Shown one piece after another: positions 1 through 50,705 of a DNA stretch of 64,000 bases. A program made the position numbers and the translations under genes. Each line of letters begins with the position of its first letter. The first letter of the stretch is position 1. Source of the stretch: an uncultured virus (IMG/VR IMGVR_UViG_3300044613_002297). Lineage: Duplodnaviria; Heunggongvirae; Uroviricota; Caudoviricetes. The notes under the pieces were generated by a model. The model had not been told where the DNA came from. It saw only the letters and a program-made list of their open reading frames with translations, and made no database searches. The DNA lies in IMG/VR virus record IMGVR_UViG_3300044613_002297; one strand, given 5' to 3'.

Positions 1-1
1 G

Positions 2-115
2 TTTGCGGGTAGCAAAACAAAGAAGTTCAGTATTTGCGGGGCACTGCTTCCGCCGCCGTGGGCTGCCGGCGTGCTGCGGCATTTGGTGCAACCGTTCATG
101 GAAATGGCGGCATAG
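2..115 (+). CDS. C-terminal end of a cassette-borne ORF, possibly a DNA cytosine methyltransferase (5' truncated by window)
   Basis: Frame 2 reads FAGSKTKKFSICGALLPPPWAAGVLRHLVQPFMEMAA*, resembling the C5-MTase motif IX/X region (F.GskT...iGNavPP). It ends just before the attC at 121. Confidence 0.45.
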   Translation, partial: FAGSKTKKFSICGALLPPPWAAGVLRHLVQPFMEMAA

Positions 116-120
116 GGTCC

Positions 121-176
121 GGCGAACACGCAGGATAAGCGGCGGCTTCGCCGTCCGCTTCATCCGCTGGTTCTAT
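121..176 (-). repeat. attC-like integron cassette recombination site
   Basis: Minus strand: R'' ATAGAAC, 5 bp, L'' GATGAAGC, stem-loop GGACGGC-GAA-GCCGCC, L' GCTTATC, 6 bp, R' GTTCGCC; two extrahelical bases. Confidence 0.88.
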
Positions 177-207
177 TTTTCGAGGAGTAGTTTAGGTGGT
201 GCAGAAC

Positions 208-453
208 ATGAGCGAGAACGCTCAAGGCCCGCGTTCGAGTCGCGGCTCCTCGATTCGGAAGGCAGACCGGCAACGGATGGCACGGTTGGATCGTGGGATT
301 GCTTGGCTTGATGCTCGGCTGGCGAGCGTGCTGGTGTGGTTCGACAAGAAGGAATACGCCAGACTTGACACGAAGAGGGCGAAGATGGATCGGCAGCGGA
401 AAGAACTTCGGCTCCGCATGAAGGGGACGAAGGCGGTCTGGAAGAACAAATAG
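208..453 (+). CDS. Cassette-borne basic hypothetical protein (cassette 127-455)
   Basis: ORF lies between attC and the attI-like site; its TAG stop is inside the ATAGAAC box. Homologue at 50411-50656. Confidence 0.7.
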   Translation: MSENAQGPRSSRGSSIRKADRQRMARLDRGIAWLDARLASVLVWFDKKEYARLDTKRAKMDRQRKELRLRMKGTKAVWKNK

Positions 454-502
454 AACTTGTGTTTCTACAGTCCGTGTATCACGCCGCTTCCGTATATCAC
501 GC
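450..502 (-). promoter_or_regulatory. attI-like site with two direct repeats
   Basis: Minus strand GTAGAAA-CACAA-G|TTCTAT (L box, 5 bp, R box), preceded by 14-bp direct repeats at 471-484 and 489-502. Confidence 0.72.
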
Positions 503-606
503 CCCACTCATACGGGAAACTCAGCGCAAAACGACTGATTGCCAATATGAACTGGAAGCGCCGCCCCTAACTGCAAGGCCACTAGCCTCGCGTGCCATGA
601 TCGGGC

Positions 607-1398
607 ATGCGACTCCTGGCGACTCTCATCGCCGTGTCGGCCCTCGCGGCGTCTGCCGCCACGATTGACGAGTCGAAGGGCGACGGCCGCTACCTCGACT
701 ACGGTGCGACGTTCGCGGGATACGTTGTTCGGGTCGTCGGCAACAACGCCGAAGGCGTGCCGCTCGCCGGGTCTGGCACGCTCATCTCGCCGCACTGGGT
801 GCTCACGGCGGCCCATGTCCCGCACGAGATGACGGCGGTGACCGTTGTCCTCGGCGGCGAGCGTCTCGCGTGCGACCGCGTCGTGCGGCATCCCGAGTGG
901 GAGGGCATCCACGGGTGGCACGACATCGCCCTGGTGCGGCTCGGACAGCACCGGCACGCAGACGTGTACCCACGGCTCGCTGACGGCACCGAGCGGCTCG
1001 GGAGCGTCGCCGCCGCCGCTGGGTACGGGATGACAGGCACGCTCACACGCGGGCTCACGGGCGGCGATCAGCGGCTGCGGGCGGGGACGTGCGTCCTCGG
1101 GTCGATCGAGCACGGCGTCTACGTATGCCCGATTCAAAGGACGCCCGACGCTGGACCGCTCCCGTCGTGCATCGCGCCGGGCGACTCGGGCGGCCCGCTC
1201 TGGGCAACGGCGATCGACGGCAGCACGCGGCTTGTGGGCGTGAACTCCTACGTCGCCCGCATCGGCGGGAAGACGAAGTACGTCCTCGGCGAGGAGTCAG
1301 GTCACACCCGCGTGGTGCTCTACCTCGATTGGATCCGGAGCGTGGTCAGCGAACTTGACGAGCCATGCACGATGCCGGAATGCCAACCGCCACGCTGA
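607..1398 (+). CDS. Secreted trypsin-like serine protease
   Basis: Signal peptide; WVLTAAH, HDIAL and GDSGGP catalytic motifs. Confidence 0.92.
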   Translation: MRLLATLIAVSALAASAATIDESKGDGRYLDYGATFAGYVVRVVGNNAEGVPLAGSGTLISPHWVLTAAHVPHEMTAVTVVLGGERLACDRVVRHPEWEGIHGWHDIALVRLGQHRHADVYPRLADGTERLGSVAAAAGYGMTGTLTRGLTGGDQRLRAGTCVLGSIEHGVYVCPIQRTPDAGPLPSCIAPGDSGGPLWATAIDGSTRLVGVNSYVARIGGKTKYVLGEESGHTRVVLYLDWIRSVVSELDEPCTMPECQPPR

Positions 1399-1601
1399 GA
1401 TTCCGCCTGCCCGAGGACGAGGGCGATTTCCGCGACTGCGTCGAGGGATCGCGGGCGAAGTCGATCGTCATCCTGCTCGACGACCACCTCGCGACCGAGA
1501 TCAAGGGCGGCGAGCTCGGCCACGATGTCGAGGTGGCGTACCAGGAGCTCCGCGAGTGGCTGCGGAGTCAGTGTGCGGAGCACGGGCTCGATCTGCTGTG
1601 A
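1380..1601 (+). CDS. Phage hypothetical protein
   Basis: ORF conserved in copy 2 (51518-51739); overlaps neighbouring genes. Confidence 0.7.
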   Translation: MPTATLRFRLPEDEGDFRDCVEGSRAKSIVILLDDHLATEIKGGELGHDVEVAYQELREWLRSQCAEHGLDLL

Positions 1602-1996
1602 CCATCACGCTCTCCATCCCCGGCGATCCGGTGCCGCAACCGCGCCCGCGAGTGTCAACGCAGGGCGGGTTCGCTCGCGCGTACGTACCGAAGAGCCATC
1701 CAGTTCACGCCTACCGACAGGCGATCGCATTAGCGGCAAGCGTCGCCGGGCTCCGCGAGCAGGCGCGTCCCGTCAGCGTTGTGATCGACGCCGTGTTCGC
1801 ACGACCCAAGTCGCACCTCACGAAGTCAGGCGTGAAGGCAACCGCACCGGCACTGCCGCGACCCGACGTGGACAACCTCGGGAAGGCGGTGCTCGACGCG
1901 CTGCAGGACGTGATGGGCGATGACACGAACGTGGCTCGTCTCGTCGTCGAGAAATCGTGGGGCACCGAAGGTCGCACGACGGTGCGGATCACATGA
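1598..1996 (+). CDS. rusA: RusA-family Holliday junction resolvase
   Basis: PGDPVPQPRPR N-terminus and RPDVDNLGKAVLDAL...DD motif. Confidence 0.88.
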   Translation: MTITLSIPGDPVPQPRPRVSTQGGFARAYVPKSHPVHAYRQAIALAASVAGLREQARPVSVVIDAVFARPKSHLTKSGVKATAPALPRPDVDNLGKAVLDALQDVMGDDTNVARLVVEKSWGTEGRTTVRIT

Positions 1997-2589
1997 ACGT
2001 CGCGATCTTCACGAGCGCGGGTGTCGGCACGCCGTGGGCAGAGCTCACGGTGGCGAACCGTCTCGCGTACTGCGTGCGGCACGACTACACGATGGTGTGG
2101 CGGTGCGAGGCGTACTCGCAGGCGTTGTCGAACTTCTGGCGGATCGGGCAACTGCTCGAACACCATGACCTCGTGTGGACGCTGGACGCCGACTGCGTGA
2201 TCACGAACCTGACGACCCGGATCGAGGACGTGCCCGATCTCGGACCGCACATGACGATCTGCGAGGAGGGTATCGGCGCTCACGCCCTGGTGAACGGCGG
2301 GTCGATCGTGTGGCGTGCAACTCAAGGCACGCTGTCGCTGCTCGCCGACATCGTCGCCGCAGAGGACGAGTGGCGCTCGATGGAGTGGAACGTCCAGCAG
2401 TGGCTGATGAAGCACCGCGAGCGGCTGGCGGATCGCATGACGATCGCGCCGAAGCGGACGTTCAACTCTGTGCATCTCGGACAGACGAACCACTGGCAGC
2501 ACGGCGACTTCGTGTACCACCCGTGCGGCAATCCGCCCGACATCCGATGCGAGTCGATCCGCGAGCACCTGGGGCGGGTGATCACATGA
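1993..2589 (+). CDS. GT-A glycosyltransferase (GMA12/MNN10-like)
   Basis: YC.RHDY, WTLDAD (DxD), N.GS and GDFVYH motifs. Confidence 0.75.
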   Translation: MNVAIFTSAGVGTPWAELTVANRLAYCVRHDYTMVWRCEAYSQALSNFWRIGQLLEHHDLVWTLDADCVITNLTTRIEDVPDLGPHMTICEEGIGAHALVNGGSIVWRATQGTLSLLADIVAAEDEWRSMEWNVQQWLMKHRERLADRMTIAPKRTFNSVHLGQTNHWQHGDFVYHPCGNPPDIRCESIREHLGRVIT

Positions 2590-3155
2590 GCTACCAGTTC
2601 ACCCACGATTGGTTCTCGACGCGCACGAGCTCGTGGCGGGATCACGTGCTGCCACGCCTGCCGCACCCGTGCCGCTGGCTTGAGATCGGCTCTCACGAGG
2701 GTCGCTCGGCGTGCTGGATGCTCGATGAGGCATTTCAACCCGGCGACGTGATCACGTGCGTCGATACGTGGGGCGGTCCGTTCGACGGGTTCTCGGCAGA
2801 CAATCCCGAGGCGCGGTTCGACGCCAACCTCGCCGGACGTGCCGAGAAGTTCAAGGGTCGCTCGCACGTATTCCTCGCCCGTGCTCTCGCCGAGCATCGG
2901 ATGTTCGACGGCGTCTACATCGACGGCGGGCACGAAGGCCGCACGGTCCTCGAAGACACAGTCCTCGCGTGGCGTCTGCTCAAGGTCGGCGCTGTCATCG
3001 TCTGGGACGACTACGAATGGCGTGACCCGCATCCGCACCGGCAGCACCTGCCGACGCCGAAGCCTGCGATCGATGCGTTCCTCGCGCTCTACGGTCAATA
3101 CCTCGACGTGCTGCACCGTGAGTGGCAAGTCATCGCCGTGAAGCGAGGCGAGTAA
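2586..3155 (+). CDS. Class I SAM-dependent methyltransferase (Methyltransf_24-like)
   Basis: LEIGSHEGRS, VDTW, YIDGGH and WDDY motifs. Confidence 0.88.
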   Translation: MSYQFTHDWFSTRTSSWRDHVLPRLPHPCRWLEIGSHEGRSACWMLDEAFQPGDVITCVDTWGGPFDGFSADNPEARFDANLAGRAEKFKGRSHVFLARALAEHRMFDGVYIDGGHEGRTVLEDTVLAWRLLKVGAVIVWDDYEWRDPHPHRQHLPTPKPAIDAFLALYGQYLDVLHREWQVIAVKRGE

Positions 3156-3761
3156 ATGGACATCTACGCGATCACGACGAGCGTCAACTACGCGGACTAC
3201 CTGGCGATTTGCCTCAACTGCCTCGCCGGTCAGGTCACGGGCGTCTGCGTTGTCACGGAGACGAACGACGCGAGCATCGCTGTCGCCGAGAAAGCCGAGG
3301 CGACTGCGCTGATCTATGACGGGTGGCACGCCGACGATGCTGCGTTCAACAAATCCGGTGCGATCCGGTTCGCTCAAGAGCACCTGCACGCCGCGTACCC
3401 GGAGGCGTGGTACTTACTGATCGACGCCGACGTGATGGTGCCGACGAACGCACGCGAGATCATCGAGCAGGACGCGACGAATCCCGAGACGCTCTACGGG
3501 GCGAGGCGGGTCGATTTCCACACGCCCGAGCGGCTCATGGACGGCAAGCCGAACAAGGCATACGCCTCGATGTTCGCCGGGTTTTTTCAGTTGTACCGGC
3601 GGCACGTGCTCTACCCCGAGTGGTCACGCACGGCCGAGCTCTGCGACCTGTCGTTCGCCAAGCAGTTCGCCTCGTGCGTCGTGCTGCCCATGACCGTCGG
3701 TCACTGCGGCGTTGAGGCGGTCAACTGGGAGGGGCGGCGCTCGCCGCTCTGGAAATGCTGA
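3156..3761 (+). CDS. GT-A fold glycosyltransferase
   Basis: TSVNYADYL, FNKSGA, LIDADV and GFFQLY motifs. Confidence 0.75.
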   Translation: MDIYAITTSVNYADYLAICLNCLAGQVTGVCVVTETNDASIAVAEKAEATALIYDGWHADDAAFNKSGAIRFAQEHLHAAYPEAWYLLIDADVMVPTNAREIIEQDATNPETLYGARRVDFHTPERLMDGKPNKAYASMFAGFFQLYRRHVLYPEWSRTAELCDLSFAKQFASCVVLPMTVGHCGVEAVNWEGRRSPLWKC

Positions 3762-4528
3762 CGCTCTTCACGCTCGTGCTCAACGGCGAGCCGTACATCG
3801 AGCAGCACCTCGCGACGTTTCGCCAACTGTCGATCCCGTGGCAGTGGCGGATCGTCGAAGGCGTGGCAGCGCCGACGCACTGCACGGCGTGGTGCCAGAC
3901 GATGCCGGATCGCTGGCACCGGGACTTCGTCAGCGTGGACGGCACGCACGAGTACGTGCGGTCAGTGAACAACACACCACACGTCACCTGCTCGTGGCGG
4001 CACTCACCGTGGGACGGAAAGATCGCGATGATCGCCCGCGCCCTCGAAGGCGTCGAAGGCGGCGTCGTCATGCAGGTGGACAGCGACGAGCTCTGGCAGG
4101 CGTGGCAACTGGAGCGGATCTACTGGCTGATGCTCCAGCAACCGGTGGCGACGGCCGCACGGTTCGCGTGCCGCTACTGGGTCGGGCCGTCGAAGCTCCT
4201 GACCTCGACGAGCGGCTGGGCTCGCGGCGACCTCGAATGGCTGCGGGCGTGGCGCTGGGGGCCGGGCATGAGGTTCCTCCGGCACGAGCCGCCGATCGTC
4301 ACGGGGTTTGACCGGTGCGTCACGATCGAATCAACGCAGGCTGCCGGGCTCGTGTTCGATCACTTCGCGTACACGACCGAGCAGCAGATCGCGATGAAGC
4401 AGGACTACTACGGGTACACGGGTTTGATCGAGGCGTGGCATCGGCTCCAGGCGACGAGCGGGCCGGTGAACTTGCAGGAATACTTTCCGTTCGCGATCGG
4501 GGCGACGGCGGATGACGTGGGGATATGA
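3755..4528 (+). CDS. GT2-like glycosyltransferase
   Basis: VLNGEPYI, WRIVEG, SVDGT and QVDSDE motifs. Confidence 0.75.
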   Translation: MLTLFTLVLNGEPYIEQHLATFRQLSIPWQWRIVEGVAAPTHCTAWCQTMPDRWHRDFVSVDGTHEYVRSVNNTPHVTCSWRHSPWDGKIAMIARALEGVEGGVVMQVDSDELWQAWQLERIYWLMLQQPVATAARFACRYWVGPSKLLTSTSGWARGDLEWLRAWRWGPGMRFLRHEPPIVTGFDRCVTIESTQAAGLVFDHFAYTTEQQIAMKQDYYGYTGLIEAWHRLQATSGPVNLQEYFPFAIGATADDVGI

Positions 4529-4809
4529 GTCAAGAAAAACTGCTCGGCCGCAGGGTGTGTTTGGACTTAGACACGCGGTGCACGCATCGTGCCAATTCGG
4601 TGCTTCCGGGTGTTGTGGTGGCAGTCTCTCAACTGCGTCGAGCCGACGGGTTGCAGGTCTGGAGAGGCAAGCATCCCAGCGTTGAGCTGCGCGTGAGGCT
4701 TGACGATGGACGCGAATACGAAGCAACCGACTGTGACATCTTCGGTTTTGTCACCGAAGACGGTCGCATTGCCTGCCGCACGTTCGACGGTAAACGCAGG
4801 GAAGGCTAA
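4525..4809 (+). CDS. Hypothetical protein at a variable locus
   Basis: Lower-GC ORF; replaced by an unrelated ORF in copy 2. Confidence 0.55.
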   Translation: MSQEKLLGRRVCLDLDTRCTHRANSVLPGVVVAVSQLRRADGLQVWRGKHPSVELRVRLDDGREYEATDCDIFGFVTEDGRIACRTFDGKRREG

Positions 4810-5670
4810 GTGACGACCTTCACCATCACAGCCGCCGACATCGAGGCTCACCGCCCCGACGTTCTGCTCCCGCCCGACGAGGAGTTCGCGGAGCAGTACG
4901 CTTCGGCCGTGCGTGTCGGTCGAGAGATCGCCGCCGATCGCACGGTCGCCTTGGTCGCCATCGCTCGCAATGCGACGCCTTGGCTCCCGCAGACGCTCGG
5001 GCTCGTCGAGGAGACGGGCGCGATGTTCCGCTCGTGGTCGGCGTTCATCTTCGAGAACGACTCGGAAGACGAGACAAAGGACGTGCTCGCGGCATGGGCC
5101 GACGGCACGCAGCGGCAGGTGTCGCTGAACGTCAACCACCGGCCGCACCTCTCGCACACGATTGCAACGGAGCGGACGATCGCGCTCGCGGAGTACCGCA
5201 CGCAGTGCCAGTGGTGGGTGAGGCAAGGCGAGCCGTGCGACTACGTGATCGTGTTCGACTCCGATGCCTGGGGCGGGTGGAGCGTGGACGGCGTGGCGAC
5301 GAGCGTGGCACATATCGAGGCGGCTCGCGGGGCGTCTTGCATGGCGAGCTACTCGTGGGCCGAACACAACGGGCACGCGATCCAGTACGACGCATTCGCG
5401 GCACGCCAGAATCACTGGAGGCGTCGCGACCAGACGTGGTTTCATCACTGGCACCCGCCTGTCGGCTCGCTGCCGCTGCGTTTCAACAGCGCCTTCGGAC
5501 AACTGGCGCTCTACAGGAGTGACGCCTACCTCGCCATGCGGTACAGCGGCGAGGACTGCGAGCACGTGTGTGCTCATCGCACGATGCCGGGGCGGTTGTA
5601 TCTCAACCCGTCGAGCCGGTGCGTCTCCTACTGGACACCACGCGATGCCGGGCAACACGGCGACAATTGA
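4810..5670 (+). CDS. Glycosyltransferase-like protein
   Basis: IARN, FENDSEDET, VFDSD, NSAFG.LALY and DCEHV motifs typical of GT-A enzymes. Confidence 0.72.
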   Translation: MTTFTITAADIEAHRPDVLLPPDEEFAEQYASAVRVGREIAADRTVALVAIARNATPWLPQTLGLVEETGAMFRSWSAFIFENDSEDETKDVLAAWADGTQRQVSLNVNHRPHLSHTIATERTIALAEYRTQCQWWVRQGEPCDYVIVFDSDAWGGWSVDGVATSVAHIEAARGASCMASYSWAEHNGHAIQYDAFAARQNHWRRRDQTWFHHWHPPVGSLPLRFNSAFGQLALYRSDAYLAMRYSGEDCEHVCAHRTMPGRLYLNPSSRCVSYWTPRDAGQHGDN

Positions 5671-6040
5671 CGCCGCGATCCTCCGCGTGCAGTGGGAATC
5701 GCAGATGCCGATGGCGGAAATCTGCACGCACTGGACGATCGCGAAAGATCAATTGATACGCCTGCGTGACGTATGGCATCTGCCGAAACGTCACGACCGA
5801 TCGCTCCGCTACAAGCCTCCACGCGATCCCGGCCCCGACGACGAGGAAGAACGGGCCAGCCGCGAGAGCCTGTCGCTGGCCCCGCAGATCGCCGCCCGTG
5901 CGACGTGCGTGCAGGCGATGTGGACCGAGCAGCAACGCCTCGATCGCACGATGGCGACGACGCCGAGCGAGGGGATGCTGCGGTGGATCAAAGCGAAGGA
6001 CATCGTCCAGAGGTTCGTCGGAGACGAACTGCAAGGCTAG
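5645..6040 (+). CDS. HTH-like phage protein
   Basis: ORF conserved in copy 2; similar architecture to 49235-49579. Confidence 0.6.
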   Translation: MPGNTATIDAAILRVQWESQMPMAEICTHWTIAKDQLIRLRDVWHLPKRHDRSLRYKPPRDPGPDDEEERASRESLSLAPQIAARATCVQAMWTEQQRLDRTMATTPSEGMLRWIKAKDIVQRFVGDELQG

Positions 6041-6084
6041 GGGGGCGCGGTGGCAGACTCGGGGAATCCCCCGGAGATCGTGCT

Positions 6085-6390
6085 ATGGACGCCCGCGAGC
6101 TCGGTGCCACGCCCGACGAGATCACGCAGTACGGCGCGACGCTGTCGTTCTGGGATGCGCTTCGCCTGCTCCAGAAGTATTCGCCGGTCGTGAACTACGC
6201 CCGTGCGTTCGTGAGCGAGATCGACCCGTACAAGAAGGGCTTGGTCGTCGCCGATGCGTGCGAGTGGATCGCCCAGCAGACCGACGCGCGGCTCGACGAC
6301 GAGCTCGTGCGGCACGTTGCGGCGGTGCTGAAGACCGCCGAGGGCGAGGCGCTGGTCCGGTTCTGCCTCTTCCAGGTCGGGGTGAAGTGA
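6085..6390 (+). CDS. Phage hypothetical protein
   Basis: GGAG RBS; identical protein in copy 2. Confidence 0.7.
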   Translation: MDARELGATPDEITQYGATLSFWDALRLLQKYSPVVNYARAFVSEIDPYKKGLVVADACEWIAQQTDARLDDELVRHVAAVLKTAEGEALVRFCLFQVGVK

Positions 6391-6391
6391 G

Positions 6392-6994
6392 ATGACGACC
6401 GATGCACTCCTACGCATCATCGCCGTCGCTGCTGCGGTTGCTCTGCTCGCTGCGCCGTACGCAGGGTACATCCGCGCTGCGGCCACCGCAGCCGCCGAAG
6501 CCGTCAGGCAGCACAGCGGCTACCTGACGCGGGTCGCTGCGGCTGGGCTGCTCATCGCCGCCGCGTGGGGCAAGGTGCCGGTCCCGACGCTGCCGACGCC
6601 CGAGGCCCAGGTCGTGATCGAGGTCGAGGAGCCCACGCCGGAACTACGGCGGCTCGTCGCACCCGTCAGGACCGCCCTCGCGTCGGCGTCGATGCGTGAC
6701 CGTGCGACATGGGCCGAGACGTGGCTGAAGTCCGGCGTCGTCGTCGCGGCCGACAACGTCCACTCGACGCCCGTGCTCGCGGACGTACGGGCGCTGCGTG
6801 CGTTTCAGGTCATCGCTCTCGACGTGGCGTGGCGTCGCATTGCTGGCGTCGCGCCCGGCAAGTATCCGGGGCTCAAGGACGGCGTCGAGGCGGCGTTCGC
6901 CGATGTGCTCGGGCTTGATGACGTGGCGGTCGATGCGTCGCTGCGTGAGCGGTACGTGGCTCTCGTGCGTGCTCTGGCGTGGGCTGCGAGGTGA
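6392..6994 (+). CDS. Membrane-anchored protein
   Basis: Two N-terminal hydrophobic segments; conserved in copy 2. Confidence 0.7.
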   Translation: MTTDALLRIIAVAAAVALLAAPYAGYIRAAATAAAEAVRQHSGYLTRVAAAGLLIAAAWGKVPVPTLPTPEAQVVIEVEEPTPELRRLVAPVRTALASASMRDRATWAETWLKSGVVVAADNVHSTPVLADVRALRAFQVIALDVAWRRIAGVAPGKYPGLKDGVEAAFADVLGLDDVAVDASLRERYVALVRALAWAAR

Positions 6995-6997
6995 CCC

Positions 6998-7930
6998 GTG
7001 GCACTCGACGCTCACGCCTTCGGCTACGATCCCGATCCGACTGGTGCCGAGGCGTTTGCCTCGACGCTGCCGCGTCCGACGCTCGCCCAGGCGGGGCCAG
7101 ACCTCGTCGCTGACGGCAAGACTGAGACGCACCTCTGGCACGCCCTGCTCCAGTGCTCACCCGGTTGGAAGCGCGGCTCGCAGGGAATGGTGGGCTCATG
7201 CGTCGGCTGGGGCGCGAGCCTCGCGGTGGATCTCACGAGCGCGTGCGACATCGTCTACCGACGCGAGCCCGAGGTCTGGCGTGGCCGCACGATTGAAAGT
7301 TCTCTGTACGGGTTCTCTCGCGTCGAGGCTCGCGGCAAAACCGTGAACAACGGCGGCGACGGCTCCACGGGATTCCACGCTGCGAAGGCAATCCGCGAGC
7401 TCGGGTGCCTGCACTACGGCGTCGAGTACGGCTCGGTCGTCATCGCCGAGAGCGGCAAGGCAGAACGCGATCGCTCGTGGGGCCGCAACGGCGTGCCGAA
7501 TGAGCTCGAGCCGTACGCGAAGGAGCGGCGGTGCAGCGAGGTCACGCTCGCCGTGGACTTCGAGCAGGCGGCTGCGGCGATCCAGAACGGCTACCCCGTC
7601 GTCGTGTGCAGCGGGCAAGGATTCTCGATGAGCCGCGACGCTGACGGTTTCTGCAAGCCGGGCGGGACGTGGTGGCACTGTATGTGCCTGGCTGCGGTGA
7701 GGTGGGGCAAGCGTCCGGGTTTGCTGTGCCTCAACTCGTGGGGCGACTCGAACACGACCGGCAAGCACTACCCCGAGACGATGCCGACAGCGGTGCGGAA
7801 TTGCTCATTCTGGATCGATGCCGAGGTCTGCACCCGGATGCTTTCGGGCCGCGACTCCTACGTCTATGCCGGGTACAGCGGGTTCAAGAGAACGCAGATC
7901 CCCAACTGGACCGGAGACATCCTCGGATGA
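6998..7930 (+). CDS. Papain-like (C1) cysteine protease
   Basis: Q...GSCVGWG catalytic Cys, WWHCM His and LNSWG Asn motifs. Confidence 0.88.
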   Translation: MALDAHAFGYDPDPTGAEAFASTLPRPTLAQAGPDLVADGKTETHLWHALLQCSPGWKRGSQGMVGSCVGWGASLAVDLTSACDIVYRREPEVWRGRTIESSLYGFSRVEARGKTVNNGGDGSTGFHAAKAIRELGCLHYGVEYGSVVIAESGKAERDRSWGRNGVPNELEPYAKERRCSEVTLAVDFEQAAAAIQNGYPVVVCSGQGFSMSRDADGFCKPGGTWWHCMCLAAVRWGKRPGLLCLNSWGDSNTTGKHYPETMPTAVRNCSFWIDAEVCTRMLSGRDSYVYAGYSGFKRTQIPNWTGDILG

Positions 7931-8181
7931 GATGGCTCGTCGCGTTCACGATCGTGCTTGTGGGATGCGTGGCGTCACTGCCGCGTGACGATGCCGCGAT
8001 CACTGCGGACCTTGCGGCCGAGACGGCACGCGAGGTGATTCGCCTGCGTCACGAGGTCGCGCCGACGCCGGTGCCGCCAGCGCCGGGCGGCAAGTGCCAG
8101 AACTGCGACGGGCGCGGGTACGTCGGTGACGGGAGGGTTCGCGTCCCGTGTCAGCCGTGCGGTGGAGACGGAGTTCTATGA
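7927..8181 (+). CDS. Small lipoprotein with CxxCxGxG zinc finger
   Basis: Lipobox LVGC; CQNCDGRG...CQPCGGDG. Confidence 0.7.
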   Translation: MRWLVAFTIVLVGCVASLPRDDAAITADLAAETAREVIRLRHEVAPTPVPPAPGGKCQNCDGRGYVGDGRVRVPCQPCGGDGVL

Positions 8182-8537
8182 CCCGCGATGAACTGTACGA
8201 ACACGTCTGGAAGCGACTCCCCATGCGAAAATACATGGTGGGCCGCGAGACCGTCCATGACCTGACGACGCTGGCGATTGAGAACTGGGAGGGCGAGTAC
8301 CTCGGCCACGCCGAGAGCGAGGAGGGTCGCGACATCGTGGCGATGTCGATCGCCGGGAAGGTGAAGCGAGCCCACCAGTGGCAGTCGGGCCGCGAACCGC
8401 AGGAGTACGGGTTCTTCTGGACGCTGATGCTGGGCGCGATCGTCAACGCGATCGTCCAAATCATCGTGAAGTGGTGGCTCGAACGTCAGGTCAATCGCGT
8501 TCTCATGGCGGCGTGGCAACAGGAGTTGACTCGATGA
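8178..8537 (+). CDS. Membrane protein
   Basis: C-terminal transmembrane segment; conserved in copy 2. Confidence 0.65.
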   Translation: MTRDELYEHVWKRLPMRKYMVGRETVHDLTTLAIENWEGEYLGHAESEEGRDIVAMSIAGKVKRAHQWQSGREPQEYGFFWTLMLGAIVNAIVQIIVKWWLERQVNRVLMAAWQQELTR

Positions 8538-8803
8538 CGCGAGAGGAAGTCACGACGAGCCTGCACTCGATCATGGAGCGATGGGGCTTCCCCGTGCTCG
8601 TGGCCGTGGCGGTTGGATACGTCATGCGTCAGGACGTGCTGCTTCCGCTCGTCGAGGCTCACCGGCAGTTCCTCACGCAACTCGGCGAGACGCAGCGGGA
8701 GATCGCCTCGGCGGTGCAGGAGCAGACCCGCCTGCTCTACGCGCTCCAGCCGGGCGCACGCGAGACGCAGTACAAGGTTTCTGCCCCGGTGCAGGAGAAG
8801 TGA
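8534..8803 (+). CDS. Holin-like membrane protein
   Basis: Single TM (WGFPVLVAVAVGYV) followed by a coiled coil. Confidence 0.5.
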   Translation: MTREEVTTSLHSIMERWGFPVLVAVAVGYVMRQDVLLPLVEAHRQFLTQLGETQREIASAVQEQTRLLYALQPGARETQYKVSAPVQEK

Positions 8804-8804
8804 C

Positions 8805-9140
8805 ATGGCAGAGTTTTCCCTGCTACCAGGGCAGCTTGCCCTGAAAACACGCCAAGGCGACGAGTTTTCGGCGACCGTCACGCTCTCGCAGGGCACGGCG
8901 GCGTTCAGCCTGACCGGATACACGGTCACGGCGGGCATCACGTCGCTCGTGGACGGCACGAGCGTTGACGACTTCACCTGCTCGGTCGTCTCGGCGACGG
9001 CTGGCACCGTCTCGATCTCGCTACAGGAGAACGAGACCTCGGCGCTTGCGTCGGGTTCCTATGCTTGGTCACTGCGGTGGATCGCGCCGGGCGCGGTCAC
9101 TCGCACCGCACTATCGGGCGTGCTGGAGGTGACGCGGTGA
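8805..9140 (+). CDS. Virion structural protein (BppU-like beta domain)
   Basis: RQGD.F...LTGYTV...GTVSISL...T.AL.SG.Y.W pattern. Confidence 0.6.
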   Translation: MAEFSLLPGQLALKTRQGDEFSATVTLSQGTAAFSLTGYTVTAGITSLVDGTSVDDFTCSVVSATAGTVSISLQENETSALASGSYAWSLRWIAPGAVTRTALSGVLEVTR

Positions 9141-9421
9141 GCATCACGGCGAGCGTCTCGGGATCACCGATCACGGCGAGCGTGACCGAAAGCGGCGCGA
9201 GCGTCGCGGTGTCGCCCGTGGCGATCTCGGCGACCGTGCTCGCGGGCATCGGTCCGCAGGGACCGGCGGGCGCGACCGGCGAAGGCGGCGGTGCGACAAG
9301 CCTCGCGACGCTGTCCGATGTGCAGATCACATCCGCCGCCGATGGCGACGTGCTTCGATACAACGGCTCGAAGTGGGCCGACTACGCCGAGATTCAACTC
9401 ACCGATGGAGGAAATTTCTGA
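9137..9421 (+). CDS. Small tail-fibre-associated protein
   Basis: GPQGPAG collagen-like triplets; L.DV.IT...DGDVLRYNG; DGGNF C-terminus. Confidence 0.7.
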   Translation: MSITASVSGSPITASVTESGASVAVSPVAISATVLAGIGPQGPAGATGEGGGATSLATLSDVQITSAADGDVLRYNGSKWADYAEIQLTDGGNF

Positions 9422-10497
9422 TGCCCAACACAATCCGCATCAAGCGTCGCGCATCGTCCGGTGGTGCCGGAGCGCCGTCGTCGCTCGCGAACGCCGAGCT
9501 CGCGTTCAATGAAAACTCGAACATCCTCTACTACGGCACGGGCACCGGCGGTGCTGGCGGCTCGGCCACGAGCGTCATCGCGATCGGTGGGTCGGGTGCG
9601 TTCGTCTCGATCACCGAGGTCCGCGCTGCGAACACGGTCCTCGCTGGACCGACGAGCGGTGCCGCCGCTGCGCCGACGTTCCGGGCGCTGACTGCCGACG
9701 ACATCCCGTCACTGTCGGGCGTCTACATCCCGATGTCGGGCTCGGCTACGCCGACCGGGACGTACACGTTCTCGGGCACCGTCAACGTCACGGGCACGTT
9801 CCAGGTCGGTTCGACGACCGTCACGTCGAGCGCCGCCGAATTGAACCTCGTAGACGGCTCGATCGCGAACACGGTGGTGAACTCGAAGGCAGTGATCTAC
9901 GGATCGGCCGGGCAGATCGCAGCGACGACGCTCACGACCAGCGGCAACGCGACGGTTGGCGGTGATCTCACGGTGACCGGCAACCTCACGGTCAACGGCA
10001 CGGTCACGACCGTGAACAGCACTACCGTCACGGTGGACGACAAGAACATCGAGCTCGGGTCGGTCTACAACCCGACGGACACGACCGCCGATGCCGGTGG
10101 CATCACACTTCGCGGAACGACTGACAAGACGATCCTCTGGCTCAACGCGACCGACTCGTGGACCTACAACCAGAACATCGAACTCACCTCGGGCTACGCC
10201 TACCGCATCGACGCCGTGTCAGTGCTGAGCAAGACGACTCTGGGTTCCACGGTCGTGTCGTCTTCGCTCACGAGCGTCGGCACGATCGCCACCGGTGTCT
10301 GGCAGGGCACTGCGATCGGCGTCGCCTACGGCGGAACCGGGCTCACGTCCGCACCGCAGGGCTCGGTGCTCGTGGCGAACACGGCGAACACGTACACCGC
10401 GCTTGACGGCGGCGGTACGAACGATGGACTCCTCGCCTACACGGCATCAAGCGACACGATCGCCTGGGCGACGAGCATCGACGGGGGCACCTTCTGA
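9421..10497 (+). CDS. Tail fibre protein
   Basis: IRIKRR...P.SL.NAELA N-terminal domain, GDLTVTGNLTVNG repeats, DGGTF end. Confidence 0.8.
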   Translation: MPNTIRIKRRASSGGAGAPSSLANAELAFNENSNILYYGTGTGGAGGSATSVIAIGGSGAFVSITEVRAANTVLAGPTSGAAAAPTFRALTADDIPSLSGVYIPMSGSATPTGTYTFSGTVNVTGTFQVGSTTVTSSAAELNLVDGSIANTVVNSKAVIYGSAGQIAATTLTTSGNATVGGDLTVTGNLTVNGTVTTVNSTTVTVDDKNIELGSVYNPTDTTADAGGITLRGTTDKTILWLNATDSWTYNQNIELTSGYAYRIDAVSVLSKTTLGSTVVSSSLTSVGTIATGVWQGTAIGVAYGGTGLTSAPQGSVLVANTANTYTALDGGGTNDGLLAYTASSDTIAWATSIDGGTF

Positions 10498-10499
10498 CG

Positions 10500-11672
10500 A
10501 TGCCCACAACAGTCAAGATTCGCCGCAGCGGCACCGCGTCGGCAACGCCGTCGGCGCTTGAGCACGGCGAGATCGCGATCAACTACGCCGATGGGAAGGT
10601 GTTCTGGAAGAACGCCTCGAACGTGATCACGTCGTTCACGTTCCAGAGTTATGCGCTCGCCAGCCATACGCACTCGATCTCGGATGTGACGGGGCTGCAA
10701 ACCGCCCTCGACGGCAAGGCGTCGAGCAGCCACACGCATTCGATCTCGGATGTGACCGGCTTACAGACGGCGCTCGATGGCAAGGCGGCTTCCAGCCACA
10801 CCCATTCGATTTCCGATGTGACCGGGCTTCAGACGGCGCTCGATGGCAAGGCGTCGTCGTCGCACACCCACGCCGCGTCGGACATCACGAGCGGCACGCT
10901 GGACATCGCCCGCATCGCCAACGACGCCGTCACCTACGCCAAGATTCAAAACGTCAGCGCCACCGACCGCCTGCTCGGTCGCTCGTCTGCGGGTGCAGGC
11001 GACGTGGAGGAGATCACCTGCACGTCGTTCGGTCGCAGTCTGATCGACGACGCAGACGCCGCGACGGCGCGCACCACGCTCTCGGTGCAGCCGACGGCGA
11101 GTCCTACCTTTACTGGCACCGCAACTCTGGCCGCAGGAGCGATCGTCACCAGCACGGCGGCAAACTCTGGCCTATCGGTTGGCGGCAGCAGTAAGCAGGT
11201 ACGGTTGAGTTTCGCGCCCAGCGAAGGTACAGCGCCAACGTCTGCCGTGACAGGGACGGCGTATATCGTCTCTGCTGACTTCGGCAGCGGCTACACGGCA
11301 ATGCGATTTGAGGCTACGGAGTTCGTCTTCGCTCACGGCATCTTTGCGTCTGAGGTTTCGACGACGTTCAAGAACAACGGCGACATCGTCATGTCGCGTG
11401 GGCAAGTCCTCGTCACCGCAGGCAGCGTGTCAGCGTGCAGCGTTGCACCGAGCGGCGATCCCAATACGGGGCTGTATTTTCCGCTGGCGAACGTTGCGGC
11501 GGTAGTGACGGATGGAGTTGAGCGGGTGCGGGCCAAGGCGACAGGCTCTGTGCGGTTTGTGCCGCTGACCGCTGACCCTGCGAGCGGCAACGAAGCCGGA
11601 GACGTGTACTACAACTCATCGACCAACAAACTGCGCGTCTACAACGGCACCTCTTGGGTAGACCTGCACTAG
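10500..11672 (+). CDS. Tail fibre protein with HTH-SISDVTGLQTALDGK repeats
   Basis: Fibre N-terminal domain, three 22-aa phage tail repeats, C-terminal GDVYYNS..NKLRVYNGTSW. Confidence 0.82.
   Translation: MPTTVKIRRSGTASATPSALEHGEIAINYADGKVFWKNASNVITSFTFQSYALASHTHSISDVTGLQTALDGKASSSHTHSISDVTGLQTALDGKAASSHTHSISDVTGLQTALDGKASSSHTHAASDITSGTLDIARIANDAVTYAKIQNVSATDRLLGRSSAGAGDVEEITCTSFGRSLIDDADAATARTTLSVQPTASPTFTGTATLAAGAIVTSTAANSGLSVGGSSKQVRLSFAPSEGTAPTSAVTGTAYIVSADFGSGYTAMRFEATEFVFAHGIFASEVSTTFKNNGDIVMSRGQVLVTAGSVSACSVAPSGDPNTGLYFPLANVAAVVTDGVERVRAKATGSVRFVPLTADPASGNEAGDVYYNSSTNKLRVYNGTSWVDLH
10665..10862 (+). repeat. Three 66-bp tandem coding repeats
   Basis: Units encode HTHSISDVTGLQTALDGKA(S/A)SS with synonymous variation; absent from copy 2. 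Confidence 0.9.
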
Positions 11673-11681
11673 GAGTGAACC

Positions 11682-11993
11682 ATGGCTGACATCCCCACGC
11701 TGTTTGCAAGCGAGCCGCTGGCGATTAGTGCCACGTACGATCGCCTGTGGGTCCGCGAGATCGTTGTGTCCAGTGTCGTTGGAGGCGAAGCCGAAGCCCG
11801 CGTCACCCTCGTCCGATTCAGGACGACCGACGACGGCGTGGAGGAAGCGCCCGCAGAGCCGGTCCGGCTGCACGTTCGCGACCTGCTCGCGGGAGCGGAG
11901 GCCGACGCGGACCTCGCGGCGGCGGTGGGGGCGCTCATGGCGTATGTGGCGAAGGTGGGCATCGAGCAGGGCGTCGTCGCGGCGGGCGAGTGA
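11682..11993 (+). CDS. Tail-fibre-associated hypothetical protein
   Basis: AGGAG RBS; homologue at 63147-63461. Confidence 0.7.
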   Translation: MADIPTLFASEPLAISATYDRLWVREIVVSSVVGGEAEARVTLVRFRTTDDGVEEAPAEPVRLHVRDLLAGAEADADLAAAVGALMAYVAKVGIEQGVVAAGE

Positions 11994-12929
11994 ATGGTCG
12001 TCCTATCGTCGATCCTGCGCCGCGACGAACCGCAACGCGAGCGACGCGAGCGGGTGCCGCTGCCCGGCGAGCTCGCCGTCGTCTGCGTGTTCTGGAATCC
12101 GGCTGGCTGGCGATCGCTGCGGAGGAACTACCTGCGCTTTCTCCACGAGATGAAGTGGTGGGGCGTGCCGACGTTCAACGTCGAGCTCGCCTACGAAGGG
12201 CAGGCGTTCACGTGCGACGACGCGTGGCTCAGGGTCCGAGGCGGCGACCGGAACGTCCTGTGGCAGAAAGAGCGACTCATCAACCTCGCGGTCGAACGCC
12301 TGCCGGATCGGTTCGACAAGATCGCATGGATCGACGCCGACATGGTGTTCCTCGACCACCAGTGGCCCGAGCGTCTGTGCCGCACGCTCGAAGAGTGGCC
12401 CGTCGTGCAGTGCTGGAACGAGTGGCACTGCGCCGGGTCTGATGGGCAGATCGAGAGCAAGAAGCTCTGCGTCGGGCATCGCTGTGAAAGGTACTTGAGC
12501 GAGCAGAACTGCTGTCCCGGCGGTGCGTGGGCGGCACGACGCGACATCTGGCCGCTCTACGATCGGCACATCGTAGGCAGCGGCGACTCGATGATGGTCG
12601 AGGGATGGACGAACCACCAAGTGAAACGCTGCCTGCGGATCATGAACGAGCCGATGGCGAGGCACTTCCGCGAGTGGTCGGAGGTGGCGTACGTGAAGGT
12701 CCGAGGCGAGATCGCTTGCCTGCCCGGTGACGCGATGCACCTGCACCACGGGAGCCTCGCCGATCGGCAGTACCACTCCCGGTGGTATCCCGTCGTGAAC
12801 GGCGGATATGACCCGGCGACGCACGTCGAGGTGGACGAGAACGGGCTGCTCCGCTGGACGGACTCGGCACCGCCGCAACTCGTCGAGTGGGTGCGGGGCT
12901 ACTTCGCGAGCCGGAACGAGGACGGCTGA
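11994..12929 (+). CDS. Glycosyltransferase-like protein
   Basis: LWQKERLIN, AWIDAD (DxD), G.AWAARR, GSGD and HLHHG motifs. Confidence 0.72.
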   Translation: MVVLSSILRRDEPQRERRERVPLPGELAVVCVFWNPAGWRSLRRNYLRFLHEMKWWGVPTFNVELAYEGQAFTCDDAWLRVRGGDRNVLWQKERLINLAVERLPDRFDKIAWIDADMVFLDHQWPERLCRTLEEWPVVQCWNEWHCAGSDGQIESKKLCVGHRCERYLSEQNCCPGGAWAARRDIWPLYDRHIVGSGDSMMVEGWTNHQVKRCLRIMNEPMARHFREWSEVAYVKVRGEIACLPGDAMHLHHGSLADRQYHSRWYPVVNGGYDPATHVEVDENGLLRWTDSAPPQLVEWVRGYFASRNEDG

Positions 12930-12930
12930 G

Positions 12931-12950
12931 TTGACACGTGCCGCACCATG
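12931..12950 (+). promoter_or_regulatory. TTGACA-N7-CACCATG motif (candidate phage promoter)
   Basis: Recurs at 22307-22326 and 33656-33675, always just after a stop codon and before a gene start. Confidence 0.5.
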
Positions 12951-12955
12951 CGGGC

Positions 12956-13866
12956 ATGGAACTCTCAACCAAGCGAATCCTCGTCACGGGCGGTGCCGGG
13001 TTTCTCGGCAAGGCAGTCTGCCGCGTGCTGCACAGTCGCGGATGCCGCCACGTGATCGTGCCTCGCAGGGTCGCTTGCGACCTGACCAGCGAGGAGGACA
13101 CGATCGACCTGTTTGACGATCACAGGCCAGAGGTCGTCTTGCACCTCGCGGCCGAAGTCGGCGGCATCGGGGCGAACATGGCGACGCCAGGAAGGTTTAC
13201 CTACGCGAACCTCGCGATGGGCTTGCACGTCATCGAGCAGTGCCGACGGTTCGAGGTCGAGAAGGTCGTCGTCGTCGGGACGGTGTGCAGTTATCCACTA
13301 GACCCGCCCGTGCCGTTCGTCGAGTCGGATCTGTGGAATGGCTACCCCGAAACGACGAACGCCGGGTACGGCGTGGCGAAGCGAGCTGTGTACGAACTGC
13401 TCAAGCAGTACCACAAGCAGTATTCCCTACCGGGTGCCGTTGTGATTCCGACGAACCTGTACGGGCCGCACGACAACTTCGACCCGGCATCGTCGCACGT
13501 CATACCTGCGATGATCCGCCGATTCTGCCGCACCGACCCGGTCACGCTCTGGGGGACGGGATGTGCGTCGCGAGAGTTCCTCCACGTGGACGACGCTGCC
13601 GAGGGCATCGTGCGAGCAGCGGAGACGGTGACGACGCCCGATCCGATCAACCTGGGCGGCGGCGGCGAAGTGCAGATGAGGAAGTTGGCCGAGATGATCG
13701 CGGGTGAGTGCGGCTACATGGGCACGATCCGCTGGGACTCCTCGAAGCCCGACGGTCAGCCACGCCGTGCGGTCGATGCCACGCGAGCCCGCGAGATTCT
13801 CGGGTGGACGCCGAGGGTCAGCCTGGAGAACGGCATCGCCGAGACGGTCTCGTGGTGGAGGGATCA

Positions 13867-13882
<16 letters not shown>
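12956..13882 (+). CDS. fcl: GDP-L-fucose synthase
   Basis: [40 protein letters not shown] and KPDGQPRR motifs. Confidence 0.95.
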
Positions 13883-14835
<953 letters not shown>

Positions 14836-14839
14836 GGCT

Positions 14840-15187
14840 ATGCCGCAGCGCATCGAGTTCATCCGGGCGGCCCGGCCGAACTACCGGATCAAGCGGAAAG
14901 AGAATCGCCCCAACGGATACCAGCGGGGCTACTCGGACAGGCGTCACTCAGCGTGGCGACGTGCTGTTCTCTTGCGTGACAACTGGACGTGCCGTGCGTG
15001 CGGTCACGTCTGCGGCGAGAAGGGCAACGCCCACGCTGACCATGTGTCGCCGGTCGTGCCGGGCACGAAGGTCTGTGTCGATGGCCGCTCGCGGTATGAC
15101 GTGGATGTCGGGCAGTGCTTGTGTCACTCGTGTCACAGCAGGAAGACAGCGAACGAGACGGCGGCGCGTGCGAAAGGCACCCCATAG
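14840..15187 (+). CDS. Terminase-associated HNH endonuclease
   Basis: RGY...W...VLLRD..C..C...DH...LCHSCHSRKT, directly upstream of terS. Confidence 0.9.
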   Translation: MPQRIEFIRAARPNYRIKRKENRPNGYQRGYSDRRHSAWRRAVLLRDNWTCRACGHVCGEKGNAHADHVSPVVPGTKVCVDGRSRYDVDVGQCLCHSCHSRKTANETAARAKGTP

Positions 15188-37625: not shown

Positions 37626-38774
37626 CTACGCCGCATCCCCCTGCCCGGCGATCCACCCGTCGAGGAGCCCCCGGCTAAACGCCGCCACGTCCTCGGGCTC
37701 GATGCCCGCAGCCGCTGCCAGGGCGTCGTGCTGAGCCCGTGGCGGGCAGGCGAGCCCTCGGGCGGCCATCGACCGCCCGACCACCGCACCGGCTTCTACG
37801 GGGCCGCTGGACGCCCGTGCAGGCGTGGGCGGCTTCGGGGCCGGTGGCGGGGCTGGGCGGGCCGCACGTCGCTCGCTGGGGAGCTTGGGGAGGAGGTCGA
37901 GCGGGTCGTCGCGGCGCACGATTTCGTCGATGAGGTAGTGCGTCCTGGTCGTCTTGCTGTCCGAGTGCGACAGGAATTCGGTAGCATCCCCGCCCCCGGC
38001 GGCGACGAACGAACCGGATGTCTTGCGGATCGAATGGAAGCCACGGCAGGGAACGCCAGCACGGCGGCAGATCTGCTTGAGCGATCCCCACAGGGACTCA
38101 AACTCGCGGTGCTCGACCCACGGCCACACGAGGTCGTCGTCGTTGCGGCGGTGCTTGGCGAGCAACCGAGCGAGCTCGGGCGTGATGCTGCGGATGATCG
38201 TCTTCACGCCGCCCTTCCTCCCCGCGCCGTCGAACAAGACGCGGCGGGTCTCAAGATCTACATCACGCCATCGCACCGACATGAGCCCGCCGATCCGCTC
38301 GCCGGTCTGCCACGCGCACATTAGGAGCGACCGAAAGAGCCACCATGCCGGGACCGGGCCGACGCTGCCACGGTAGGACAGCGCCGCCTTGAGCATCGCG
38401 TCGATCTCGTCGAGCGAGTATCCGCGAGGAGGGCGGATGGACACCTTGACCAACCCTCGCGGGAGGTCTGGGTGCTCGATCAGCGTGCCATCGCTGCGGG
38501 TCATCCGTTTTTTTGCAGCGTGAGCCCAGAGCGTGACGACGCTCGTGAGGTCTTTCTTCACCGTGGCCGGTCGTGGCGGCTTGCCACGCCAGTGCGGCGT
38601 CTCTGCTCGCCACCGCGAGAACTGAGCGATTGCCGTGTCGTCGAGGTCGTCGAGCGTTGATGGACGCCCGAGCCATTCCTCAAACCGATCGAGCGACGTG
38701 GCGAACAGTTTGACGGTGCGATCCTTGAGCGCGTGCCTCACGGCGTAGATCTTGAGCAGGTCGCGGAGTGTCAT
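37626..38774 (-). CDS. int: Phage tyrosine integrase
   Basis: TGERIG (R), RKGG (K), FHSIRK (HxxR), LSH and HY catalytic residues. Confidence 0.93.
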   Translation of the reverse strand: MTLRDLLKIYAVRHALKDRTVKLFATSLDRFEEWLGRPSTLDDLDDTAIAQFSRWRAETPHWRGKPPRPATVKKDLTSVVTLWAHAAKKRMTRSDGTLIEHPDLPRGLVKVSIRPPRGYSLDEIDAMLKAALSYRGSVGPVPAWWLFRSLLMCAWQTGERIGGLMSVRWRDVDLETRRVLFDGAGRKGGVKTIIRSITPELARLLAKHRRNDDDLVWPWVEHREFESLWGSLKQICRRAGVPCRGFHSIRKTSGSFVAAGGGDATEFLSHSDSKTTRTHYLIDEIVRRDDPLDLLPKLPSERRAARPAPPPAPKPPTPARASSGPVEAGAVVGRSMAARGLACPPRAQHDALAAAAGIEPEDVAAFSRGLLDGWIAGQGDAA

Positions 38775-49719: not shown

Positions 49720-49952
49720 CCGTGACCGACATCGTGACACGCCTGCGCCGGTGGACGCACGCGGTGGACGCTGCGCCCGCGAGCGACTTGATGGACGAGG
49801 CGGCGGATGAGATTGAGCGTCTGCGGCTTACAGACGAGGAGCGTGAGGCGATTAAGGCTGGCATCTCAGCCTGCGAAGACATCGTCTACGGCGGTGCTAC
49901 CGACCAAGAGGCGGCGGACACCATGCGGCGGTTGTTGGATCGGTTGAAGTGA
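49716..49952 (+). CDS. Phage hypothetical protein (DIVTRLR...EAADEIERLR family)
   Basis: Common phage motif; its TGA stop lies in the terminal TGAGAAC box of the cassette array. Confidence 0.7.
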   Translation: MTVTDIVTRLRRWTHAVDAAPASDLMDEAADEIERLRLTDEEREAIKAGISACEDIVYGGATDQEAADTMRRLLDRLK

Positions 49953-50005
49953 GAACGCGCAGGATAAGCGGCGGCCTCGCCGTCCGCTTCATCCGCTGGT
50001 TCTGT
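49950..50005 (-). repeat. attC-like site
   Basis: Minus strand: ACAGAAC-CAGCG-GATGAAGC-GGACGGC-GAG-GCCGCC-GCTTATC-CTGCGC-GTTCTCA. Confidence 0.88.
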
Positions 50006-50323: not shown

Positions 50324-50379
50324 ACAGAACGCACAGGATAAGCGGCGGCTCTGCCGTCCGCTTCATCCGCTGGTTCTAT
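50324..50379 (-). repeat. attC-like site
   Basis: Minus strand: ATAGAAC-CAGCG-GATGAAGC-GGACGGC-AGA-GCCGCC-GCTTATC-CTGTGC-GTTCTGT. Confidence 0.88.
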
Positions 50380-50410
50380 TTTTCGAGGGGTAGTTTAGGT
50401 GGTGCAGAAC

Positions 50411-50656
50411 ATGAGCGAGAACGCTCAAGGCCCGCGTTCGAGTCGCGGCTCCTCGATTCGGAAATCAGACCGGCAACGGATGGCACGGTTGGATCGTGGG
50501 ATTGCTTGGCTGGACGCTCGGATGGCAAGCGTGCTGGTGTGGTTCGACAAGAAGGAATACGCCAGACTCGACACGAAGCGGGCGTCGATGGATCGGCAGC
50601 GGAAAGAACTTCGGCTCCGCATGAAGGGGACGAAGGCGGTCGGGAAGAACAAATAG
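50411..50656 (+). CDS. Cassette-borne basic hypothetical protein (cassette 50330-50658)
   Basis: Homologue of 208-453. Confidence 0.7.
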   Translation: MSENAQGPRSSRGSSIRKSDRQRMARLDRGIAWLDARMASVLVWFDKKEYARLDTKRASMDRQRKELRLRMKGTKAVGKNK

Positions 50657-50705
50657 AACTTGTGTTTCTACTGTCCGCGTATCACGCCGCTTCCGTGTAT
50701 CACGC
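50653..50705 (-). promoter_or_regulatory. attI-like site with two direct repeats
   Basis: Minus strand GCGTGATACACGGA-AGCG-GCGTGATACGCGGA-CA-GTAGAAA-CACAA-G|TTCTAT. Confidence 0.72.

Follow-up and report, generated by a model that had tools for sequence, protein, structure and literature searches.

How can gene cassettes change places in a phage genome that carries integron recombination sites and apparently no integron integrase? The locus studied here raises this question at both ends of one contig. The window, by which we mean the whole stretch of 64,000 nucleotides analysed (uncultured virus IMGVR_UViG_3300044613_002297, Caudoviricetes), carries an array of attC-bounded cassettes near its left end and another near its right end, each beside an attI-like site, hereafter the dock. 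An earlier note, made from the sequence alone, had proposed that cassettes were exchanged recently, by excision or insertion between two attC sites.

Phage DNA extends across the whole window, with replication genes, RusA, glycosyl- and methyltransferases, terminase, portal, capsid, tail and tyrosine integrase genes. Self-BLAST of the window showed that the stretch from 124 to 12.5 kb recurs at 50.3–64 kb with approximately 88–95% identity. The earlier note had spoken of two phage copies; the repeat is real, but the sequences belong to two different phages, since the two parts of the window match different, separate records. Positions 452–15,377 (phage A) are 100% identical, over 14.9 kb, to one public record (the contig of L048 and L100), and positions 16,664–56,377 (phage B) are 99.3–99.99% identical to records L042, L045, L095 and L096. 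Judged by these matches, the window consists of two sibling temperate phages, A and B, about 90% identical, joined in one contig. The changeover lies within 15,378–16,663, around the terminase genes (A side 100% identical to the L048 contig, B side 99.8% to G001), and this joint may be a natural tandem or an assembly join. Alignments of several relatives start or break at 15,211–15,246, a possible genome end. The siblings also differ by gene-sized indels in a cluster of glycosyltransferase, methyltransferase and nucleotide-sugar epimerase genes (1,993–14,835) and in a tail-fibre-like gene (10,500/61,496). Imperfect 22-bp direct and inverted repeats at 47,198–47,353, within the gene that follows the helicase, could mark a replication origin.

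To locate recombination sites, both strands of the 64 kb were scanned for attC structure with a purpose-built scanner and folding, rather than with the IntegronFinder covariance model. Four candidates were obtained: three 56-bp attC sites on the minus strand and one 40-bp chance-like match at 10607. The features of the two arrays are as follows.

2..115, plus strand: 3′ end of a C5 cytosine DNA methyltransferase gene (last 37 of 297 aa), second gene of the position-2 cassette of phage A
121..176, minus strand: attC of cassette X in phage A, 56 bp; R″ 176-170, then L″, L′ and R′ 127-121, crossover G|TT between 127 and 126
127..455, minus strand: cassette X, allele A, 329 bp, at position 1; core GTTCTAT; identical in L077
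208..453, plus strand: gene of cassette X, allele A, 81 aa, basic; antisense to its own attC, with its stop codon inside the core site
450..502, minus strand: attI-like dock of phage A; core 456-450, crossover between 456 and 455
468-462, 482-476 and 500-494, minus strand: L-like box and the two direct repeats of dock A, named by analogy with attI1
498..562, no strand: 65-bp non-coding element, behind the dock in A and absent in B
49950..50005, minus strand: last attC of array B, of the DUF551 cassette; its R′, GTTCTCA, overlaps the stop codon of the upstream phage gene
49956..50329, minus strand: position-2 cassette of phage B, 374 bp, identical in L042, L045 and L086
50004..50321, plus strand: DUF551 gene (PF04448, E 1.4e-9)
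50324..50379, minus strand: attC of cassette X in phage B; R′ GTTCTGT at 50330-50324
50330..50658, minus strand: cassette X, allele B, 329 bp, with its gene at 50411-50656 on the plus strand
50653..50705, minus strand: attI-like dock of phage B, with core, L-like box and two direct repeats

All three attC sites share one geometry (R″, 5-nt spacer, 8-nt L″ with an extra base, 7-nt L′, 6-nt spacer, R′) and fold with extrahelical bases, as a canonical attC does; the site at 121-176 forms a hairpin with an unpaired central spacer. The attC copies in the window are 92–96% identical over 51 bp by self-BLAST. In all three complete cassettes of the window, the core complements the R″ box of the cassette's own attC, for X the core GTTCTAT, which is the footprint of circular excision. 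The dock has a GTTRRRY-like R box, an L box and direct repeats and stands at the array head, and so resembles an attI in sequence and position; this is the layout of attI1 (core, L box, direct repeats) given in the Figure 4 legend of PMC9892861. The supposition of real attC-bounded cassettes beside an attI-like site was thus borne out. ARAGORN calls of 'tRNA-???' at 180-254 and 50383-50457 were rejected, having a 2-base anticodon and overlapping the X gene. Rfam gave no match in window 1-700, and an annotated phage collection none to window 100-600.

In array A the dock is followed by X (329 bp) and then by the methyltransferase cassette; in array B it is followed by X, also of 329 bp, and by the DUF551 cassette (374 bp), with which the array ends. 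Between 124-502 and 50327-50705 the two are 95.0% identical, and self-BLAST confirmed that homology ends at 124/50327, the crossover of the R′ box, which is GTTCGCC in A (127-121) and GTTCTGT in B on the minus strand, just as had been noticed before. Beyond X the arrays have nothing in common, far array end included. The claim that the same 329-bp cassette stands beside both docks holds for its length and its presence in both; the cassettes are two alleles, with 16 differences in 329–333 bp (about 5%). X is slightly less diverged than the flanking backbone (16/329 versus 8.4%; Fisher p 0.027). Co-oriented attC sites lie within a few kb of each other with no intI nearby, two of them in the window for B, and for A one in the window and two in L077.

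Regarding the cassette genes, the X protein had no match in Pfam, PHROGs, NCBIfam or Atlas families, and only 13 close relatives were found. The methyltransferase-like tail at the left end proved to belong to a cassette: window 1-120 is 100% identical to the methyltransferase cassette in L048, L077 and L092, and the full 297-aa protein in L048 is a C5 methyltransferase (TIGR00675 above cut-off, PF00145). This cassette is 1,659 bp long and has two genes, the first, outside the window, coding for a CmoA-like class I SAM methyltransferase. The earlier note had predicted a further attC upstream ending in GTTCGCC on the plus strand; a 91-bp attC with this ending closes the cassette 1,659 bp from the crossover in L077, L048/L057 and L092. 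The GTTCGCC core alone is insufficient to identify the cassette, because an attC with this ending occurs in 3 of the first 47 attC-bearing loci with unrelated cassettes behind it. The methyltransferase tail had no match in those 47 loci, and an exact 28-mer from it led to one viral record, L048. In the other array, the DUF551-like reading frame was upheld by its Pfam match.

Several further cassettes share features with these. GTTCGCC-core cassettes of 655–894 bp (L012, L027, L031, L034) are of a multi-gene type with their own promoter-like stretch, and end in a small gene that reads as ribbon-helix-helix-like, a label given by reading and not by search. A stretch resembling this promoter-like sequence occurs at window 36,380-36,435 and 39,240-39,295. 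In long attC sites of 85–91 bp (L026, L031, L039, L049 and others) the antisense gene begins within the site, so that N-termini ending in ...SRGS/SAGS recur. The X protein starts similarly despite its short-type attC, as if derived from a long-attC cassette.

Comparison with separate records showed which part of array A moves. L077 is identical to window 1-756, with the methyltransferase cassette standing behind X, while L048 and L092 lack X and carry at position 1 another cassette, Y, of 376 bp, with its own 50-bp attC and an 84-aa gene unrelated to that of X (no family match; Atlas scores up to 0.81, which is chance level). Beyond cassette 1, not one mismatch separates L077 (X) from L057 (Y, part of the L048 contig) over 4,571 bp; towards the dock, the Y-form contig L048 is 100% identical to window A over 452-15377. 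The swapped unit spans exactly the interval from the dock crossover to the R′ crossover, and brings its own attC, the R″ of which complements its own core. Cassette Y begins with an 87% copy of window 498-560, which belongs to the 65-bp element, and this element was met again both behind docks and within a cassette (L048, in Y; L041, L062, L078).

Alternative arrays, whose search in read data had been recommended, were looked for in the Logan contigs of four runs, rather than in raw reads, on L077:2200-5303 (four runs among 24 listed, all four labelled lake water metagenome). In 4/4 runs the unitig that carries the methyltransferase breaks off at the crossover, position 4674 of L077 and 127 of the window (depth 196, 304, 166 and 141), and a separate unitig holds the X-dock joint (depth 110, 156, 95 and 79). 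A joint from 4674 to 5048 was present in 2/4 runs (depth 105 and 63), and is read as Y since Y starts with the 87% copy described above. These joints were read at 90% likeness and may stem from other phages of the group. The unitig depths, which are not shares of molecules, fit coexisting X and Y forms. In all four runs there is also a third X allele, and what follows it is an attC, not the dock. Neither an excised circle nor a phage A with an empty position 1 and the methyltransferase cassette first was seen among the records and the contigs of the four runs.

The exchange of X for Y between identical flanks, together with the run contigs, shows that position 1 varies and that X is a mobile unit. 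Recent exchange, as had been proposed, is thus supported, but by other records than the window; the variation had been placed at position 2 and not at position 1, which the X form (window, L077) and the Y form (L048, L092) of phage A contradict. Nor is an attC × attC reaction implied by the comparison of A with B: ordinary attI × attC insertion of X at the docks of two already different arrays suffices, given that A and B differ in everything beyond X and that the X alleles are about 5% apart. We consider it unlikely that X already held position 1 in the common ancestor of A and B, position 2 having changed later by attC × attC excision or insertion. Such a history would agree with the presence of X at position 1 in both phages and with attC × attC recombination being the normal excision route (PMC8876359, consulted in part), and an ancestor holding both X and Y could have produced the two A forms through a single excision of each kind; the lower divergence of X relative to the backbone fits late acquisition or transfer and leaves the order unfixed. 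Against it, position 1 is polymorphic within A, the arrays are unlike beyond X even at the far end, an X allele also stands behind another attC, and more events are required than with two dock insertions.

Cassettes of this kind recur in other viral contigs. The attC motif gave 47 exact matches in viral contigs and 1 in genome contigs, the latter on a 3.3-kb piece that consists of little else than such cassettes. Among 98 distinct adjacent units from loci not classed as cellular (near-identical alleles counted separately, L050-L053 and L093 left out), core and R″ were complementary in 85, compared with 17.3 ± 3.2 under random pairing (maximum 30 in 10,000 shuffles); some of the 13 unmatched cores may conceal an attC missed by the scanner. 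An antisense gene, counted as one of 50 aa or more that runs opposite to attC and stops no more than 20 nt from the crossover, was found in 75 of the 85 matched phage cassettes. The phage cassettes thus depart from the complete integron, in which sense genes are read from a Pc promoter at attI; their genes being antisense to attC, they would not be expressed from a promoter of the Pc type at the dock. A weak test for sigma-70-type sites gave none in L077:1500-5303. Large phages with the same cassette type were also observed (L007, L016 and L028; 146, 205 and 48 kb), the complete 205-kb one having no match to a tyrosine recombinase.

The dock is shared as well. Different first cassettes all start at the same dock G|TT, and the same dock precedes other first cassettes in the related phages L027, L041, L055, L058, L062 and L091. 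In L059 and L063 it lies directly against the array-end sequence of B or of A-like phages, and looks like an empty dock. A second dock regular expression found a related dock at the array head in 20 of the 47 attC-selected loci, with 0 opposite-strand matches in 422,713 bases; being fitted by eye to the same 47 loci and missing phage B's own dock, it is descriptive only.

Which enzyme would act on these sites? No integron integrase (TIGR02249) was detected in the window or in any of 47 related phage records, many of them fragments and 8 at least 90% complete. Where a complete integron has intI beside attI, the dock of phage A adjoins a trypsin-like protease gene (607-1398). The one tyrosine recombinase of the window is the following.

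37626..38774, minus strand: phage tyrosine integrase, 382 aa, with PF00589 and XerC/D-type matches, about 12 kb from the dock of B

That this enzyme, or another Xer-like one, moves the cassettes is improbable in our view. A PF00589 integrase is found in 20/49 records and in 8/9 of the near-complete array-bearing ones, and in L041 a tyrosine integrase stands directly beside the array end, as such a role might predict. The window's integrase lies far from the dock, has no TIGR02249 match, and its alignment with IntI P0004 is limited to a 56-residue catalytic stretch, and the complete 205-kb array-bearing record G017 has no tyrosine recombinase match at all. Moreover, the attC geometry is of the canonical IntI type, and the dock is a motif that adjoins intI in cells.

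This last point comes from a search with a pattern derived from the phage dock, which matched 13 viral and 27 metagenome loci. Twenty of the 27 metagenome loci (L066-L076, L080-L085, L088-L090) were classed as cellular-looking from gene content and the lack of phage arms, with a Pfam check on three of them (MFS transporter, efflux system, MsrA). The dock match in these loci is by construction, since the pattern was built from the phage; their cellular context is not. Nine recognisable cellular cassettes all had a core match (9/9) and sense genes (9/9). In 2/20 cellular loci (L082 and L089), an intI piece adjoins the dock and points towards it, in the same sense as the cassettes; that of L082 scores 282.5 bits against the TIGR02249 cut-off of 265, in a gene that looks 5′-truncated. 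The other 18/20 docks had no intI within the stretches examined, and so the probable hosts may also keep docks without an integrase. One of these loci, L071, has an OLD-family nuclease gene behind the dock, and the scanner found no attC there. Full-length relatives of the cellular intI are 76–89% identical to it, and the named relatives come from Planctomycetota (RLS35655.1, member of a 77% cluster) and Planctomycetia (69%). A Planctomycetota host is accordingly probable, resting on a dock beside an intI with such relatives. Within 95 genomes of one order, probably not that of the host, the dock pattern was absent (0/95) and IntI occurred in 1/95 in an unrelated-looking context; this order had been chosen through G049, the sole genome record with an attC, and its contig L049 looks like a phage fragment.

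Homologous recombination between attC repeats, the sites being relics that mark conserved gene boundaries, would do without any site-specific enzyme, and to this we give a still smaller chance. The phage encodes a Sak4-like annealing protein, the attC copies are nearly alike, and homologous exchange in the flanks could pass an existing junction between sibling phages. However, the attC sites of X and Y differ (56 and 50 bp) and diverge one base past the core, so that no repeat is shared across the junction, and the complementarity of R″ and core in 85/98 units needs circular excision. Homologous recombination is therefore contradicted as the origin of the junctions, and possible as a second route of spread. 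Assembly chimeras among co-occurring siblings are a very improbable source of the differences, even though the window itself switches from A to B, possibly by an assembly join, and attC repeats break unitigs, because the arrays recur in separate records (A with X in L077, A with Y in L048 and L092, B in L042, L045 and L086), the X allele of A differs from that of B, the X-dock junction lies within one unitig in 4/4 runs, and the junctions share only 5–7 bases, too few for assembler joining.

The reading we regard as probable is a phage-borne integron platform without an integrase, shuffled by the IntI of the host in trans. The phage would hold the passive half of an integron, that is, a host-type attI-like dock and attC-bounded cassettes without intI. 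During infection or lysogeny, host IntI would excise cassettes as circles, which would then be inserted at the phage dock with a G|TT crossover; position 1 would turn over fastest, as insertion takes place at the dock. In the part of PMC8876359 consulted, integrons are described as normally integrating cassettes at attI and excising them between attC sites. The two A siblings, with X or Y before the methyltransferase cassette, would most simply result from two separate dock insertions, and the shortest history of A would start from a methyltransferase-first array, with X gained in one lineage and Y in another. The presence of X at position 1 in both A and B would reflect related alleles drawn from a pool shared among phages. 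Events between two attC sites probably occur too, since cassette circles must have a source, although the A/B comparison demonstrates none. The array is reversed relative to an integron: its genes, antisense to attC, are co-directional with a plus-strand cluster formed, in this order, by replication genes, array and dock. To judge by this orientation, read-through from upstream plus-strand genes may express the cassettes, a newly arrived cassette taking the downstream end of the gene cluster.

Arrays without an integrase (CALINs) are commonly taken for leftovers or for off-target insertions, and to our knowledge activity of phage attC sites is so far known only from a laboratory E. coli assay. 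As far as its sequence tells, the phage array is not a complete integron, lacking intI and carrying antisense genes; it corresponds to the definition of a CALIN and appears to work like an integron platform. The available part of PMC9892861 (Qi et al. 2023) describes 17 phage CALINs, for instance in phages TJE1, PH101 and P12002L, with methyltransferase cargo; five phage attC sites are recombined by IntI1 in in vitro-type assays, and off-target or illegitimate recombination is suggested as the route into phages. It also describes a CALIN in the Shewanella prophage M16-3 with its own attI and an intact intI in the same prophage. The arrays studied here resemble those CALINs in their attC clusters without intI, DNA methyltransferase cargo and canonical site shape, but differ in the conserved attI-like dock, the systematic antisense genes and the turnover between otherwise identical genomes; in what was available of that paper, no cassette swap between sibling genomes is reported. 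An IntI elsewhere in the genome is one proposed origin of CALINs (PMC8618304, seen in part).

Integrons with an inverted integrase and integrons of Planctomycetes have been described (PMC4889954, Cury et al. 2016, and PMC2426708, respectively, both seen in part). In dock motif, attC geometry and G|TT crossover, the phage platform is like sedentary chromosomal integrons of the inverted-integrase type, here probably of Planctomycetota. Unlike cellular integrons, it lacks intI, and its genes are antisense in 75/85 cassettes against sense genes in 9/9 cellular ones. A literature search, which took in a minority of subscription papers, found neither this phage group nor such a swap described. What is new is the isogenic swap of one cassette, phage CALINs being already published.

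Phage genomes that are otherwise identical differ by a single cassette swapped at both crossovers, and nature thereby gives direct evidence of a live array that has no integrase. With the sites and a candidate enzyme defined, the hypothesis that IntI acts on phage DNA in trans becomes testable, and the swap also offers a site-specific mechanism for part of the mosaicism of phage accessory genes. If the mechanism holds, the enzyme that shuffles bacterial cassettes also serves their phages. We lean slightly towards a wider view, in which a widespread freshwater phage group has domesticated the integron of its host: it would hold on to a copy of the host-type attI, together with a private, backward cassette pool, and borrow host IntI as a diversity generator that swaps accessory genes, DNA methyltransferases included, at one fixed point, so rapidly that a population contains several versions side by side. 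The backward layout would then let phage transcription express the cassettes, which would be silent at a host dock, as host cassettes would be in the phage.

Further observations concern the array ends. At the array head, L018, L022, L032, L035 and L044 show a second, different motif, possibly another dock type, and in L054, L055 and L060 the same dock as in A and B is found between the terminase and portal genes of a different phage backbone, which indicates that the platform has changed genomic position. The far array end is marked by a conserved hairpin with a T run (L077:2929-3008; also L027, L041, L056, L062, L063 and L087).
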